The position numbers and the translations under genes were made by a program. From a virus (taxonomy: Duplodnaviria; Heunggongvirae; Uroviricota; Caudoviricetes): a stretch of 40,605 nt of DNA. Of the stretch, positions 2,093 to 40,605 are shown one piece after another (within the stretch, counting starts at the first letter, position 1; each line of letters begins with the position of its first letter). The DNA lies in the IMG/VR virus record IMGVR_UViG_2734482545_000011; one strand, 5' to 3'. Under the pieces are notes generated by a model. The model was not told the DNA's origin, did not search any database, and saw only the letters and a list, made by a program, of their open reading frames with translations.

Positions 2093-2430
2093 CAGATCAC
2101 CACTTCGTCAAACTGACACGAAAAATCGGTATAGGTGATATGTTCTGTCGCTGACCACGTTCGACACACCACTCTGATTTTTCTGTTAATACCCGGCGGG
2201 CGCCAAAAAAAAGATTTATAGCCTTCATGCCGGGCTAAAAATTTTTCAAATGAATCACGTTCATTCGCCTCAACTTTGAAATCACAGGTGAAAACGCGCA
2301 GAGAATGATTAAGTCCATTTGGACTTCGTTGCTCATAACCATCACCAAATCTTACAGTTTTTATCGATGGTTTATTTTCTGTTTTCATTCCATCCTCTGG
2401 TAACCAGTGAAATTCTTCCGTATTAGCCAC
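2092..2430 (-). CDS. M: minor tail protein M
   Basis: 112-aa [43 protein letters not shown]..., lambda gpM-like; directly downstream of the tape measure gene. Confidence 0.85.
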
Positions 2431-5400
2431 TTAACATTCCCCCATCACGTCGCATATTTAACAGATTGCCCTGCACCCGCTGATCAACCATCCCCATAAG
2501 TGCTTTTATTGCCTGAGGGCCAATCTCTCCATTCTGGCCGTCATTTTGAATAGTGATTTGGTATACAGGGGCATAGGTAATATCTCCGCCTCCATTACCA
2601 CTTTTACTATTAATAGCTCTGACACCAAGAGAACCATCGGAAGTTCGTGTTAATGGCATAATGGCTTCCGGTCCAGCCTCACCAAAAACACCAGCCCCTT
2701 TTGCAAAAGCAAAAAATTGCGGGGAATCATAAATACCGTTCGAATACGTGCTCAATGACGGAGACTCATAAACACCGCCCTTTGCATTCGGAATAAATTT
2801 ACTAATAGCACTCCCGATAGTTCCTAAAATCCCCCCAGAAGAACTGTTACTAATGCTGTCGAAAATCCCAGTAATTGAAGCCTTTAATGCTATTCGACTA
2901 AGATCCGAAATCACGGAAGTAGCGAAAGAACGAAAATTTGCCTTGCCTGTCGTGACAAAATCACCCAGCGCATCGGTCATCCCATCAAACATCTGAGTCG
3001 TGGTTGATTTTATCTGCTCACTGATATCCTTAGTGTCATCCAGCCAGTTATTGAATCCCTGGGAGGCACCACTAACCCAGTCTCCTGCCTGAATATCGAG
3101 CTGCTCGTTTTTCTGTCTGACAATTTCTTTTTCCCGTTCCAGAGCATCATTCAGAGCCTGCATTTTCTCTTGAAAAACATGATCTGACATTCCACGGGAT
3201 TTATCTGCATAGTCACGTTCAAGTTGCAGACGCTGATTGTTATATCCATGTTCAATCCGCAGTAATTCCTGCTGGCGTTGCTGATTTTTATCGCCAACCC
3301 CATAACCAGCAATCTGAATATCATACCCCTGCTGACGATTATCAATCGAAGCCTGCAATGAATCACGCCATGCTGTTATTTCGGCGGATTCCTTGATTAG
3401 CCTGTTATTTTTTTCAATCGCAACATTTTTCTCCATCAACGTGGTTATTTCTTCCCGGTGTAAGAGAAGCGATTTCTGATCCTGGGTTAATTTCGATGAT
3501 GGTCGTGACTCTAGGTCGGCAATCCGCTGACGCCACTTAACCAGTTCCTGTTCAGAGGAACTTAATTTAACGGTCAACTCAGCTTGTGAACTTAGTAACG
3601 CATTCTGTTGATTCAGATGATCAATCATTCGTTGGGCTGCATCATCAGAATAACCTTTCGCCTTTGGTTGCTTTGGATCTTTATAACGCTCATTTATTTG
3701 AGCGATAAGATTATTATATTCTTCCTTTGAATACTGATTCTTTAGCTTTTCCAGTTTTGCAAGTTCACTAGCTCTCTGCTGCTCCCGGGTCTGATATTGT
3801 TTTGAAAAGGCATCTGCTCTCTGTCTGAGTTCAATTCCTTCCTGTTGTCGCTTGTTGTAATCGTTTATTGATGAATTTAGTACGTCCTGAGCAATTTTTT
3901 CTGCTTGAAGTACGCCCAATTGCTGCTTTAATCGTGCCAGCCTTTTATTTTGAGCTCCGCCATCTCCAATGCCACCTAACCCGAAAACTCCGGGTCGGGT
4001 ATTTTTTTCTATTTCATCAATTTGACGGAGAACATCTGAGATTTTTTGATCAAGGGAGGCCTCACGGCCAATATCCAGCATGGAATCCCATGCCCATTTT
4101 GCGGAGTCTGCGACAGCTTTCCATGCAGTCTCAAGATAACCAAGATTTTCTTTAATCTGGTTGGTGCGCTGGATCATTGAGGATGAGTATTCTTCTGTCG
4201 CAATGCGGGCGGCCTCCTGCTGGTTCCCTTCATCCTGTAGCGCCTTAATCTGGTTATAAGTCGCAAGTGTCAGAAAATGGTACTGATCATTAAGTTTTGA
4301 TATGGCACTGACAGGATCCTTTGCAATTTCATTGAAGTCATTAACCAGTTGTTCGGTTGATATTCCTGTTACTTCGCTCGTTTTTACTATCGCTGTCGTC
4401 ACTTGCTCCAGCGAACTGCTCGCTACCTTTCCCGAACGCACAAGCTGATTTAATACTGCCGCCGCAGCACCAGTTGTCGAATCAGCCGCATTCCCGGCAC
4501 GTTGAGCTATATCGCCCAATTGCCCGCTGGTTGTCCCCAACTGATTTCCGGTAAGAATAAGAGATTTATTAAATTCGTCCTGCTCCTGAGAGCCTTTATA
4601 GTAAGCCAGTCCTAAGACCCCAACGGCTGCTGCGGCCAGGGTAAAAGGATTAATTAATCCCAGCACATAAGAACCTACACCTTTGATCGCCGGGCCAATC
4701 CCACCGAACATATCTTTTAGCTGGCCGCCCTGCTGCATTAACACCATAAATGGCGACTGACCAGTGGACAACCCAACAACAATATCCGTCATTTGTACAG
4801 GCAACATGCGCATAGCAAAAGCCGTTTGTTTTGCCGACATTCCGGTTTTGCTTAATTGTGATTGAGTAACCTCAAGCTCACTCCGCATAGCACGAAGTTT
4901 TCCAGAAAGCTCCTCATACATTTCAGGAGAAAGCATCCCCTTAGCTTTTGCTTCATTGAGCTGTTTCTGTTGTTCTACCAGACGATTAAAAGCAGTTCCG
5001 ACAGGATCAAGTTGAGCAATCAGACGTTGCAAAGCAACAACCTGTTCATCATGCGCTTTTGCTGCTTCTCGCTCTGCCTGAGCCTCTCCGGTAAGCTCTC
5101 GCCGTGTTTCCTGTATTTTTCGGCTATAATTCTCAAACTGAGAACCATTTATTTTCCCGGATGCAAACGCAGCATTAAGTTCATCATGCTGTTGTTCAAG
5201 ATTTCTTAGCGCCGCAGCCAGAGGGTCGATCTTGTCCAGCATTCTTTGAAAGGCCTGAGCCTGCGCTTCCTGCTGGGCGGCAGCAAGTTTTCCGGCCTTC
5301 TCGGCTTCTCTCTGCGCTTGCGCAACCCCGCTCAATTCCTCTGTGGTTTCATTAAGTTTACGGACAAGAAATTCATATTCTTCTTTATCAATAAGCCCTT

Positions 5401-5656
5401 TATCGAAAAATTTCTTTAATTCAGAATAGCGTCGACCGACAGTATCAATTGCGGCACCAACTGGATCAATAGCTGCTTTTAATTTTGCGAGCGCGTTCTT
5501 CTCATCTTCTGTTGCCTTAGTCACTTTCCCTGCGCTATTTGCAGCAGTTTCCCCAGCCTGCGTCATTTTGACTAATGAGGAGGTCAGATTGTCAGCATTA
5601 TTTTTCGCTCCAGTGCTATCAATAATTATTGCGAGACGCGAGGTTTGCTCTGCCAT
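2423..5656 (-). CDS. tail tape measure protein
   Basis: 1077-aa ORF rich in Ala/Gln/Glu/Lys coiled-coil sequence with a Gly-rich hydrophobic central segment; located between the GT chaperone and M. AGGAG Shine-Dalgarno upstream of the ATG. Confidence 0.9.
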
Positions 5657-35219: not shown

Positions 35220-37820
35220 ATGAGCACAAAACCACTCTTCCTGTTACGGAAAGCGAAAAAATCATCCGGTGAACCTGACGTCGTCCTGTGGGCAAGCAAC
35301 GATTTTGAATCGACCTGTGCCACTCTGGACTACCTGATCGTTAAGTCAGGTAAAAAACTGAGCAGCTATTTTAAAGCTGTTGCCACGAATTTTCCTGTCG
35401 TTAATGACCTGCCCGCTGAAGGTGAGATCGATTTTACCTGGAGTGAACGCTATCAACTCAGCAAAGACTCCATGACATGGGAACTAAAACCGGGAGCAGC
35501 ACCAGACAACGCTCACTATCAAGGCAATACCAACGTCAACGGCGAAGACATGACTGAGATTGAGGAGAATATGCTACTCCCAATTTCTGGCCAGGAACTG
35601 CCCATTCGTTGGCTTGCTCAACACGGCAGCGAAAAACCGGTAACGCACGTTTCACGCGACGGACTCCAGGCATTACACATTGCTCGGGCTGAAGAACTAC
35701 CGGCTGTTACTGCCCTGGCTGTTTCCCACAAAACCAGCCTGCTCGACCCGCTGGAAATTCGCGAACTCCACAAACTGGTTCGTGACACTGACAAAGTTTT
35801 CCCTAATCCTGGTAATTCAAACCTGGGACTGATAACTGCTTTTTTCGAAGCATACCTGAACGCTGACTACACCGATCGAGGACTGCTGACAAAAGAGTGG
35901 ATGAAGGGTAATCGTGTTTCACACATCACTCGCACGGCTTCCGGTGCTAATGCTGGCGGCGGAAACCTCACCGATCGCGGCGAAGGTTTCGTACACGATC
36001 TGACGTCACTGGCGCGGGACGTAGCCACTGGCGTACTGGCCCGTTCAATGGATCTGGACATCTATAACCTTCATCCGGCACACGCTAAACGCATTGAGGA
36101 AATTATCGCTGAAAATAAACCGCCCTTTTCTGTTTTCCGCGACAAATTCATCACCATGCCTGGCGGGCTGGATTATTCCCGCGCCATCGTGGTTGCGTCC
36201 GTAAAAGAAGCACCAATTGGGATCGAGGTCATCCCCGCGCACGTCACTGAATATCTGAACAAAGTACTGACTGAAACCGATCATGCCAACCCTGATCCGG
36301 AAATCGTGGATATTGCCTGCGGTCGCTCCTCTGCCCCGATGCCGCAGCGAGTAACAGAAGAAGGAAAACAGGATGATGAAGAAAAACCGCAACCATCTGG
36401 AACAACGGCAGTTGAACAGGGAGAGGCTGAAACAATGGAACCGGACGCAACTGAACATCATCAGGACACGCAGCCGCTGGATGCTCAGTCACAGGTAAAT
36501 TCTGTTGATGCGAAATATCAGGAACTGCGGGCAGAACTCCATGAAGCCCGGAAAAACATTCCATCAAAAAATCCTGTCGATGCCGATAAATTGCTTGCTG
36601 CATCACGTGGTGAATTTGTTGACGGAATTAGCGACCCGAACGATCCGAAATGGGTAAAGGGGATCCAGACTCGCGATTGTGTGTACCAGAACCAGCCAGA
36701 AACGGAAAAAACCAGCCCGGATATGAATCAACCTGAGCCAGTAGTGCAACAGGAACCGGAAATAGCCTGCAATGCCTGCGGCCAGACTGGCGGGGATAAC
36801 TGCCCTGACTGTGGTGCGGTGATGGGCGACGCAACATACCAGGAAACATTCGATGAAGAGAGTCAGGTTGAAGCTAAGGAAAATGATCCGGAGGAAATGG
36901 AAGGCGCTGAACATCCGCACAATGAGAATGCTGGCAGCGATCCGCATCGCGATTGCAGTGATGAAACTGGCGAAGTCGCAGATCCCGTAATCGTAGAAGA
37001 CATAGAGCCAGGTATTTATTACGGAATTTCGAATGAGAATTACCACGCGGGTCCCGGTGTCAGTAAGTCTCAGCTCGATGACATTGCTGATACTCCGGCA
37101 CTGTATTTGTGGCGTAAAAATGCCCCCGTGGACACCACAAAGACAAAAACGCTCGATTTAGGAACCGCTTTCCACTGCCGGGTACTTGAGCCGGAAGAAT
37201 TCAGTAACCGCTTTATCGTAGCACCTGAATTTAACCGCCGGACAAACTCCGGAAAAGAAGAAGAGAAAGCGTTTCTGAGGGAATGCGCAAGCACAGGAAA
37301 AACGGTTATCACTGCCGAAGAAGGCCGGAAAATTGAACTCATGTATCAGAGCGTTATGGCTTTGCCGCTGGGGCAATGGCTTGTTGAAAGCGCCGGACAC
37401 GCTGAATCATCAATTTACTGGGAAGATCCTGAAACAGCAATTTTGTGTCGGTGCCGTCCGGACAAAATTATCCCTGAATTTCACTGGATCATGGACGTGA
37501 AAACTACGGCGGATATTCAACGATTCAAAACCGCTTATTACGACTACCGCTATCACGTTCAGGATGCATTCTACAGTGACGGTTATGAAGCACAGTTTGG
37601 AGTGCAGCCAACTTTCGTTTTTCTGGTTGCCAGCACAACTATTGAATGCGGACGTTATCCGGTTGAAATTTTCATGATGGGCGAAGAAGCAAAACTGGCA
37701 GGTCAGCTGGAATATCACCGCAATCTGCGAACCCTGGCTGACTGCCTCAATACCGATGAATGGCCAGCTATTAAGACGTTATCACTGCCCCGCTGGGCTA
37801 AGGAATATGCAAATGACTAA
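35220..37820 (+). CDS. recE: exodeoxyribonuclease VIII (RecE), full length
   Basis: 866-aa [54 protein letters not shown]...; same length as K-12 RecE as I recall; C-terminal nuclease domain present. Confidence 0.95.
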
Positions 37821-38622
37821 GCAACCACCAATCGCAAAAGCCGATCTGCAAAAAACTCAGGGAAACCGTGCACCAGCAGCAATTAAAAATAACGACGTGA
37901 TTAGTTTTATTAACCAGCCATCAATGAAAGAGCAACTGGCAGCAGCTCTTCCACGCCATATGACGGCTGAACGTATGATCCGTATCGCCACCACAGAAAT
38001 TCGTAAAGTTCCGGCGTTAGGAAACTGTGACACTATGAGTTTTGTCAGTGCAATCGTACAGTGTTCACAGCTCGGACTTGAGCCCGGTAGCGCCCTCGGT
38101 CATGCATATTTACTGCCTTTTGGTAATAAAAACGAAAAGAGCGGTAAAAAAAACGTTCAGCTAATCATTGGCTATCGCGGCATGATTGATCTGGCTCGCC
38201 GTTCAGGTCAAATCGCCAGCCTGTCAGCCCGTGTTGTCCGTGAAGGTGACGAGTTTAATTTCGAATTTGGCCTTGATGAAAAGTTAATACACCGCCCAGG
38301 AGAAAACGAAGATGCCCCTGTTACCCACGTCTATGCTGTCGCAAGACTGAAAGACGGAGGTACTCAGTTTGAAGTTATGACGCGCAAACAGATTGAGCTG
38401 GTGCGCAGCCAGAGTAAAGCTGGTAATAACGGGCCGTGGGTAACTCACTGGGAAGAAATGGCAAAGAAAACGGCTATTCGTCGCCTGTTCAAATATCTGC
38501 CCGTATCAATTGAGATCCAGCGTGCAGTATCAATGGATGAAAAGGAACCACTGACAATCGATCCTGCAGATTCCTCTGTATTAACCGGGGAATACAGTGT
38601 AATCGATAATTCAGAGGAATAA
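37813..38622 (+). CDS. recT: recombinase RecT (single-strand annealing protein)
   Basis: 269 aa from [57 protein letters not shown]...; start overlaps the recE stop by 8 nt. Confidence 0.95.
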
Positions 38623-38677
38623 TTCAGCCTGGCGGTGTAATGCACCGCCAACTTGAAATATTTTTATGAGAAAAATT

Positions 38678-38827
38678 ATGAGATATGACAATGTTAAACC
38701 ATGTCCATTTTGTGGTTGTCCATCAGTAACGGTGAAAGCCATTTCAGGATATTACCGAGCGAAGTGTAACGGATGCGAATCCCGAACCGGTTATGGTGGA
38801 AGTGAAAAAGAAGCACTCGAACGATGA
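38678..38827 (+). CDS. lar: restriction alleviation protein Lar/RalR (49 codons to an in-frame TGA)
   Basis: MRYDNVKPCPFCGCPSVTVKAISGYYRAKCNGCESRTGYGGSEKEALER then TGA; four-Cys zinc-ribbon pattern. The same frame continues 14 more codons (NKRTTGNNNGGVHV) to TAA at 38870-38872. Confidence 0.65.
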   Translation: MRYDNVKPCPFCGCPSVTVKAISGYYRAKCNGCESRTGYGGSEKEALER

Positions 38828-38852
38828 AATAAACGAACCACTGGAAATAATA

Positions 38853-39053
38853 ATGGAGGTGTTCATGTATAAAATTACCGCCACTATTGAAAAGGAAGGT
38901 GGCACTCCTACTAACTGGACAAGATATTCAAAATCTAAACTAACGAAATCAGAATGCGAAAAAATGCTCTCAGGTAAAAAAGAAGCAGGCGTTTCCAGAG
39001 AGCAGAAAGTAAAACTGATAAATTTTAATTGCGAGAAACTTCAGTCCTCGTGA
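38853..39053 (+). CDS. ydaC: YdaC-like protein
   Basis: MEVFMYKITATIEKEGGTPTNWTRYSKSKLTKSECEKMLSGKKEAGVSREQKVKLINFNCEKLQSS; alternative start at the second ATG (38865) after GGAGGT. Confidence 0.55.
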   Translation: MEVFMYKITATIEKEGGTPTNWTRYSKSKLTKSECEKMLSGKKEAGVSREQKVKLINFNCEKLQSS

Positions 39054-39369: not shown

Positions 39370-40605
39370 ATGTCTAAATTACCAACAGGTGTCGAGATTC
39401 GAGGTAAATACATTCGCATCTGGTTCATGTTTCGAGGAAAACGATGTCGGGAAACATTGAAAGGCTGGGAGGTTACTAACAGTAACATTAAAAAAGCCGG
39501 GAATTTAAGAGCGTTGATAGTTCATGAAATCAATTCCGGTGAGTTTGAGTATTTAAGACGTTTTCCCCAGTCCAGCACTGGGGCAAAAATGGTGACAACG
39601 AGGGTCATAAAAACGTTCGGGGAGCTTTGTGATATCTGGACAAAAATTAAAGAAACAGAGTTAACAACAAACACAATGAAGAAAACGAAATCACAATTAA
39701 AAACACTCAGGATAATAATTTGTGAGAGTACTCCGATATCGCATATTCGTTATAGCGATATCTTAAACTACCGGAATGAACTGCTGCATGGAGAAACGCT
39801 TTACCTGGATAATCCAAGATCCAACAAAAAAGGAAGAACCGTGCGCACAGTTGATAACTATATCGCCCTGCTCTGTTCGTTGTTACGTTTTGCGTATCAG
39901 TCGGGATTTATATCAACCAAACCATTTGAAGGAGTAAAGAAATTACAGAGAAACAGAATAAAGCCTGACCCGTTATCTAAAACAGAATTCAATGCATTAA
40001 TGGAAAGTGAAAAAGGACAGAGCCAGAACTTGTGGAAATTTGCCGTATACTCCGGGCTTCGTCACGGGGAACTGGCTGCTCTGGCGTGGGAGGATGTGGA
40101 TTTCGAGAAGGGAGTTGTGAATGTCAGAAGAAACCTGACGATACTGGATATGTTCGGTCCCCCAAAAACAAATGCGGGGATCCGGACGGTAACACTACTG
40201 CAGCCTGCTCTTGAAGCACTGAAGGAGCAATACAAACTGACCGGGCATCATCGCAAAAGCGAAATCACTTTTTATCATCGGGAGTACGGCAGAACCGAAA
40301 AGCAAAAACTGCATTTTGTTTTCATGCCCAGAGTGTGTAACGGAAAACAGAAACCTTATTACTCGGTAAGCAGTTTGGGTGCGAGATGGAATGCAGCAGT
40401 AAAACGTGCTGGTATTCGCCGCCGTAATCCGTACCATACGCGGCATACTTTTGCCTGCTGGCTGTTGACGGCAGGAGCGAACCCGGCGTTTATAGCCAGC
40501 CAGATGGGGCATGAAACTGCGCAGATGGTGTATGAAATTTACGGTATGTGGATTGATGACATGAACGACGAACAGGTAGCCATGTTGAATGCGCGGTTAT
40601 CGTAG
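39370..40605 (+). CDS. intR: tyrosine integrase IntR
   Basis: 411 aa; C-terminal catalytic region with HTRHTFACWLL (H-x-x-R) and tyrosine in QMVYEIYGMW; window ends on its TAG stop. Confidence 0.95.
   Translation: MSKLPTGVEIRGKYIRIWFMFRGKRCRETLKGWEVTNSNIKKAGNLRALIVHEINSGEFEYLRRFPQSSTGAKMVTTRVIKTFGELCDIWTKIKETELTTNTMKKTKSQLKTLRIIICESTPISHIRYSDILNYRNELLHGETLYLDNPRSNKKGRTVRTVDNYIALLCSLLRFAYQSGFISTKPFEGVKKLQRNRIKPDPLSKTEFNALMESEKGQSQNLWKFAVYSGLRHGELAALAWEDVDFEKGVVNVRRNLTILDMFGPPKTNAGIRTVTLLQPALEALKEQYKLTGHHRKSEITFYHREYGRTEKQKLHFVFMPRVCNGKQKPYYSVSSLGARWNAAVKRAGIRRRNPYHTRHTFACWLLTAGANPAFIASQMGHETAQMVYEIYGMWIDDMNDEQVAMLNARLS

Follow-up and report, generated by a model that had tools for sequence, protein, structure and literature searches.

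The ralR reading frame and its prophage context

The window, by which we mean the whole 40,605-nt stretch of IMGVR_UViG_2734482545_000011, has at its end the left arm of a prophage of the Rac type, comprising recE, recT, a ralR open reading frame, a DUF1187 gene, xisR and intR. On the plus strand, the ATG at 38678 opens a ralR frame that is interrupted by a TGA at 38825-38827. The features of this region are as follows.

35220-37820: recE
37813-38622 (+): recT, upstream of ralR in the leftward early block recE-recT-ralR
38678-38827 (+): truncated ralR (lar) open reading frame, 49 codons and a TGA, identified by translation, RefSeq WP_001443846.1, PF14354 and NF007260
38800-38815 (+): 16-nt RalA-pairing site in the ralR mRNA, codons 41-46, a direct repeat that fits the description in PMC4041452
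38822 (+): synonymous site in the Arg49 codon (CGA here, AGA in K-12), linked to the stop and a marker of the haplotype on which it arose
38825-38827 (+): premature TGA at codon 50, with a derived A at 38827 followed by another A (UGA-A context)
38828-38872 (+): ralR 3' remnant, now presumably untranslated, 14 codons (NKRTTGNNNGGVHV) and the original TAA
38865-39053 (+): DUF1187 gene (ydaC/rcbA homologue), 62 aa, PF06688 at 132 bits, RefSeq WP_001302840.1
38871-39049 (-): RalA antitoxin sRNA, 179 nt, antisense to ydaC/rcbA, Rfam RF02694
39153-39368: xisR
39370-40605: intR

Translation of positions 38678-38872 (+) gives MRYDNVKPCPFCGCPSVTVKAISGYYRAKCNGCESRTGYGGSEKEALER, a stop, NKRTTGNNNGGVHV and a second stop. 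A first-pass annotation of this DNA had described a TGA after codon 49 in a frame that stays open to a TAA, and translation confirmed this: the frame has 49 sense codons, the TGA, 14 further in-frame codons and the TAA at 38870-38872, and it would span 64 codons if the TGA were counted as sense. The same annotation gave the K-12 protein as 64 aa, which agrees with K-12 ralR (b1348; 195 nt, 64 aa), and expected a truncated protein, which is borne out by a predicted product that ends at Arg49 with 49 residues rather than 64. The overlap that it placed between the extension and the start of ydaC is also present, as the 3' extension of ralR shares 8 nt with the ydaC/rcbA gene, whose ATG lies at 38865-38867. 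The 3' remnant encodes the N51, K52 and R53 portion of the Lar W-N-x-R motif and is the K-12 sequence, set apart only by the G-to-A change in codon 50. Upstream of the frame, a T run at ~38661-38665, 13 nt before the ralR ATG, is one base shorter in the window and O55:H7 (five T) than in K-12 (six T). Use of the in-frame ATG at 38666 would extend the RalR N-terminus by MRKI, and some database entries do carry longer N-termini.

Window positions 16000-40605 are 99.9% identical to E. coli NCTC10444, in which ttcA, the K-12 Rac attachment site, directly follows the element. The NCTC10444 element carries lysis genes, terminase genes and trkG; the element is a long Rac relative and not a 23-kb remnant of the K-12 type. 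The gene order of the K-12 Rac prophage, which encodes the 64-aa RalR (Lar; b1348) of the RalR/RalA toxin-antitoxin system (PMC4041452), is the same (recE-recT-ralR-ydaC/rcbA-xisR-intR), and ttcA follows intR there as in NCTC10444. The window from 1 to 35000 holds a 1077-aa open reading frame (2423-5656, minus strand), terminase, essD, rrrD, trkG, kilR, sieB and a ydaS/ydaT-like region. The prophage in the window is far more complete than K-12 Rac, yet its ralR is truncated.

The antitoxin gene is intact. RalA matched RF02694 at 225.1 bits (gathering score 170) over model positions 1-179, and all 179 nt are identical to K-12. Pairing between RalA and ralR is underlain by a direct repeat (38802-38815 and 38974-38987), and the complementarity extends over 16 nt with a perfect 11-nt contiguous core, starting at RalA position 63. 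The 16-nt pairing site is also identical to that of K-12, and the variant bases lie 7-12 nt downstream of it. An RNAduplex prediction between whole RalA and whole ralR returned a meaningless end-to-end duplex and was disregarded. A promoter and terminator scan of the region found weak consensus matches only and no terminator, and it supports no conclusion. The best sigma-70-like match in the region (39115-39088 on the minus strand; TTGACG, 16 nt, AATAAT, 10/12) is placed ~35-40 nt upstream of 39049, the RalA 5' end as annotated, which is an unexpected distance, and RalA would have either another promoter or a longer precursor.

A GGAGG belonging to the DUF1187 gene (38855-38859) sits 5 nt in front of its start codon, and translation of this gene should therefore be independent of ribosomes arriving from ralR. 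This gene ends at a TGA (39051-39053; 62 aa), where K-12 has AGA and continues for 7 codons more to give 69 aa. K-12 rcbA is the odd one out through this stop loss (L001, ~1953-1976), the gene being 189 nt in every other allele that we fetched. This variable position is 2 nt upstream of where the 5' end of RalA maps on the opposite strand.

Ancestral state and spread of the codon-50 stop

Alignment to K-12 ralR, the check that had been proposed for this locus, found 193 of 195 nt identical, and one of the two differing bases in the gene is the codon-50 stop. At nt 145 the window has C and K-12 has A, with Arg49 encoded in both; at nt 150 the window has A and K-12 has G, which changes TGG (Trp50) to TGA. 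The TGG-to-TGA change suggested from the window by itself is thus the actual difference from K-12. K-12 and all of the intact alleles have G at 38827, where the window has A.

Five divergent E. coli alleles (L004-L008), ~90-98% identical to the window across a 351-nt query, all have TGG at codon 50. Four of the five encode an uninterrupted 64 aa, and the fifth, L006, stops at codon 24. One of them, L007, reads precisely CGA TGG, a single step away from the haplotype of the window. Homologues in Salmonella and Citrobacter keep RWN(K/R)R in the context L(V/I)RWN(K/R)R.

A word-indexed protein search retrieved just 19 close relatives, and an exhaustive HMMER search retrieved 1690 Lar-family representatives, from which we counted conservation in 220 Lar domains less than 60% identical to RalR. 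Trp50 was present in 220/220 of these distant domains, equal to C9 and C12 (220 each) and alongside C30 (210), C33 (215), N51 (210/220) and R53 (186/220); the matches were chosen by similarity to RalR and the conservation is possibly inflated somewhat, with a signal at Trp50 as strong as at the zinc ligands. Because divergent E. coli alleles, the Salmonella and Citrobacter homologues and all 220 Lar domains keep Trp50, TGG is the ancestral codon and TGA the derived one.

To gauge the frequency of the allele, we took 61-mers with the site at their centre and counted their exact occurrences in 5426 complete E. coli genomes from RefSeq, with the following result.

CGA-TGA (window haplotype): 310 genomes
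CGA-TGG: 123 genomes
AGA-TGG (K-12 type): 1154 genomes
AGA-TGA: 0 genomes

The locus is carried by ~1920 of these genomes and the nonsense allele makes up ~16% of carriers; exact 61-mers miss alleles with an additional SNP and mirror the most-sequenced lineages, but the counts are still ample against sequencing error. In these counts TGA is fully linked to the CGA marker. The CGA-TGG haplotype, judged from these sequences, is the intact precursor of CGA-TGA, and the finding of 123 CGA-TGG genomes and no AGA-TGA genome points to a single mutational origin of the stop. Carriers include O157:H7, O55:H7, O111:H8 and O102:H6 strains, three deposited phage records are identical across the 351-nt query that contains the allele, and at least 1000 contigs encode the exact 49-aa protein. 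Almost every carrier has the same 351 nt, and the W50stop allele is probably young.

Two readings would remove the nonsense mutation altogether, and to each we give practically no credence. The difference is a single base, of the type that errors can make, and a base-calling or assembly error could in principle have broken an intact gene in a single sequence. However, 310 independent complete genomes share the exact 61-mer, and because the exact allele recurs in this way it is real and neither chance nor read error. The 351-nt region is also identical across strains from different sequencing groups and in the three phage records, the protein is found on many contigs, and the stop is completely linked to CGA; an artefact, which the first-pass annotation had named as a possible refutation, is refuted by these 61-mer counts, phage records, contig counts and linkage. 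The polarity could also be reversed, with the 49-aa form original and the K-12 protein lengthened by a stop-to-sense change, and K-12 does have one such stop loss next door, in rcbA (69 aa, compared with 62 elsewhere). Against it stand the E. coli alleles of the divergent set and the homologues from Salmonella and Citrobacter, which keep Trp50 and extend beyond it, and also the 220 distant Lar domains, which never lack W50 and show strong conservation of N51 and R53. These observations together refute the reversed polarity. Reference Lar proteins ending at the equivalent codon would likewise have undermined the interpretation, but the Pfam profile continues for 6 positions past it, worth 14.5 bits.

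The history of the allele thus began with a G-to-A transition at 38827 on the CGA-TGG haplotype, by which the codon for the invariant Trp50 became TGA. Since then it has spread by descent, and probably also with Rac-type prophages, into several serotypes. As the allele is already catalogued in RefSeq and UniRef, it is an ordinary known polymorphism; a search of the literature turned up no paper, on O157 or otherwise, that notes the truncation. The first-pass annotation had mentioned neither that the allele is common and already a RefSeq protein nor that RalA, antisense to ydaC, is intact.

Expected effect on the RalR protein

The 49-aa open reading frame is RefSeq WP_001443846.1, annotated ralR and named 'type I toxin-antitoxin system endodeoxyribonuclease toxin RalR' (O55:H7 CB9615, NCTC10444 and many other strains). 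The protein is identical, and the DNA of these strains is identical to the window over at least 351 nt. The name implies an active toxin, which the present evidence does not support. It was assigned because the fragment exceeds the cut-offs of PF14354, TIGR03655 and NF007260. Against PF14354 the 49-aa product scored 39.0 bits over profile positions 2-52 of 58 (cut-off 28.6), and 53.5 bits over positions 2-58 of 58 when the stop was read as W. Against TIGR03655 it was barely above the cut-off (40.3 bits compared with 39.6; 55.3 bits with the stop as W), and against NF007260, the RalR equivalog, it scored 126.9 bits (cut-off 113) with positions 1-49 of 64 matched.

The Lar family (PF14354, Lar_restr_allev; TIGR03655, anti_R_Lar) shares a CxxC...CxxC zinc ribbon followed by a helix, with an invariant Trp and a following N-x-R. 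The zinc ribbon is present in the 49-aa product, which retains all four cysteines (C9, C12, C30 and C33). The C-terminal W-N-x-R motif is absent, as its W codon is the stop and N-K-R lies downstream. By family conservation, the stop would remove the most conserved non-cysteine motif of the Lar domain, and relative to K-12 RalR the product would be without W50, N51, K52, R53 and an 11-residue tail. Many Lar-family members have 2-5 tandem Lar domains, whereas the 49-aa product is one incomplete domain. Among metagenome proteins of the family (P0022-P0163), many are 105-430 aa long with 2-5 tandem Lar domains, and the Rac protein is single-domain.

King and Murray reportedly assigned ralR to restriction alleviation in 1995. 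RalR is described as a DNase toxin (PMC4041452). Its published biochemical role is disputed between DNase toxin (PMC4041452) and restriction alleviation (King and Murray 1995, as cited there). In PMC4041452, changes at residues 14, 37, 39, 49, 51 and 52 obtained by error-prone PCR lower toxicity, and purified K52Q does not cleave DNA. N51 and K52, which this mutagenesis showed to be required for toxicity and DNase activity, lie past the stop and are absent from the product.

We used an AlphaFold model, built with 7 related sequences at moderate confidence (pLDDT 68.8), solely to place the stop in the predicted helix. In the model, residues 17-22, 25-30 and 36-40 form strands and residues 43-58 form a helix, which the stop cuts after seven residues. 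A PDB sequence search with the 64-aa protein returned only chance matches, to the chitin-binding protein CbpD (E = 0.002-0.016), and Foldseek found no match to the model in the PDB at E <= 0.001. The best Foldseek look-alikes were Elf1/ELOF1 zinc ribbons (TM ~0.6), a generic fold likeness that gives no functional lead.

Translation would end after Arg49, within the predicted C-terminal helix, and the product would keep the four-cysteine zinc ribbon and lose W-N-x-R. Judged from published point mutants and from family conservation, the 49-aa product is most likely without toxicity, DNase activity or restriction-alleviation activity; loss of the last is expected because this Trp is kept throughout the Lar family. 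We predict a negative result if the 49-aa open reading frame were expressed and scored for growth inhibition. Some residual or altered activity of the 49-aa form is conceivable, given an intact zinc ribbon and scores that pass curated family cut-offs. The best reading of the locus is a type I toxin-antitoxin pair with the toxin disabled and the antitoxin RNA intact, and we consider it highly probable that ralR(W50stop) is a natural, single-origin nonsense allele in which the toxin has decayed and the antitoxin persists. Inactive hok copies in E. coli K-12 (PMC4041452) are similar in that the toxin open reading frame is mutated and the locus retained; here the antisense RNA is intact. The hok copies were inactivated by an insertion element or rearrangement, whereas ralR(W50stop) has a single clean nonsense codon, and the hok toxin is a membrane peptide whereas RalR is a soluble zinc-ribbon protein.

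Other lesions of ralR occur in E. coli. The L006 allele (NZ_CP168984.1, strain UTME-3; 380-574) has its ATG start changed to TTG and GGA changed to a TGA stop at codon 24 (G24stop). RefSeq labels it 'internal stop' but treats the W50stop allele as a normal protein. Another allele (P0002) carries W50S, with Ser at codon 50 (LERSNKRT), and is a second lesion at the invariant tryptophan. Two alleles (P0003 and P0005) have ralR frameshifts, and two E. coli proteins (P0012 and P0015) are RalR::DUF1187 deletion fusions. The P0012 junction (...GGSEKEA|GVSREQKV..., with the bar marking the junction) is the one expected from deletion between the direct repeats at 38802-38815 and 38974-38987, and the pairing repeat may also be a deletion hotspot that removes the ralR 3' end and much of ralA. 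These independent lesions fit ongoing ordinary decay of the toxin gene.

Alternatives to loss of function, and significance

Leaky termination at the UGA would leave RalR attenuated rather than dead, with Trp-tRNA(Trp) reading UGA-A at a low rate to yield mostly the 49-aa form and a little wild-type 64-aa protein. UGA is the sole stop codon misread by tRNA-Trp, and because the residue inserted would be the lost Trp, such readthrough would restore exactly wild-type RalR. Engelberg-Kulka reportedly found in 1981 that an A after UGA favours readthrough. Of the stop codons TGA is the leakiest, and here it is followed by A; downstream of it, 14 codons that match K-12 remain in frame. The K-12 RF2 variant is weak, and natural isolates probably terminate better, which tempers any percent-level figure taken from K-12. 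A reporter in the K-12 strain E. coli BW25113 put readthrough of UGA by Trp-tRNA(Trp), in competition with RF2, at ~2% at 37 °C and ~4% at 25 °C, and the level of readthrough varies with temperature, with cAMP and between single cells (PMC10570021). Several observations weigh against a role for it at ralR. No downstream hairpin or stimulatory structure is present: the minimum folding energy of window positions 38815-38880 was only -3.8 kcal/mol, compared with an average of -7.4 for shuffled sequences, of which 193 of 200 folded at least as well. Selenocysteine insertion or other programmed UGA recoding was rejected, there being no stable hairpin 3' of the UGA. Because nearly all carriers are identical across 351 nt, the identity of the downstream codons carries no weight, either for readthrough or as a sign of selection on them, and the same stretch is under constraint from the next gene, whose Shine-Dalgarno sequence and start it contains. 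Expression of ralR is, moreover, poor in lysogens. We regard leaky termination as unlikely to account for the allele, and we think it quite unlikely that the TGA acts as a natural 'dimmer' whose basal readthrough gives authentic RalR at roughly the percent level. If that were true, carriers would have a low, heterogeneous dose of a toxin or anti-restriction protein.

It is very unlikely, in our judgement, that the 49-aa zinc ribbon keeps a function of its own, be it non-toxic restriction alleviation or action as a dominant negative or a decoy, and that the truncation was selected for shedding toxicity while preserving this benefit. Such a function would accord with the retention of four cysteines and three predicted strands, with a fragment that scores above Pfam and NCBIfam cut-offs, and with an allele found in 310 of the ~1920 ralR-carrying complete genomes across several serotypes. 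However, Trp50 is as invariant as the cysteines (220/220), which argues for a role in the fold or the active surface, and substitutions at 49, 51 and 52 already lower activity (PMC4041452). The frequency of the allele is explicable by clonal expansion of heavily sequenced lineages, for example O157:H7, and quite different ralR lesions elsewhere, including the codon-24 stop, resemble plain decay. The frequency of the allele in complete-looking prophages shows that it is tolerated and is uninformative on selection.

For the favoured reading, a nonsense allele with a decayed toxin and a persisting antitoxin, the significance lies in annotation and in a natural pair of alleles; beyond these it is ordinary prophage gene decay. 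E. coli genomes labelled with a RalR 'endodeoxyribonuclease toxin' number in the hundreds and include O157:H7 and O55:H7 lineages, although the encoded protein is without the invariant Trp and the residues that mutagenesis showed to be required, and surveys of toxin-antitoxin or anti-restriction systems that count W50stop ralR as functional would overcount. The CGA-TGG and CGA-TGA haplotypes are a natural pair that differs by one base in the 61-mer and is suited to testing the Lar W-N-x-R motif, and the same pair could also probe the role of RalA after loss of its toxin.
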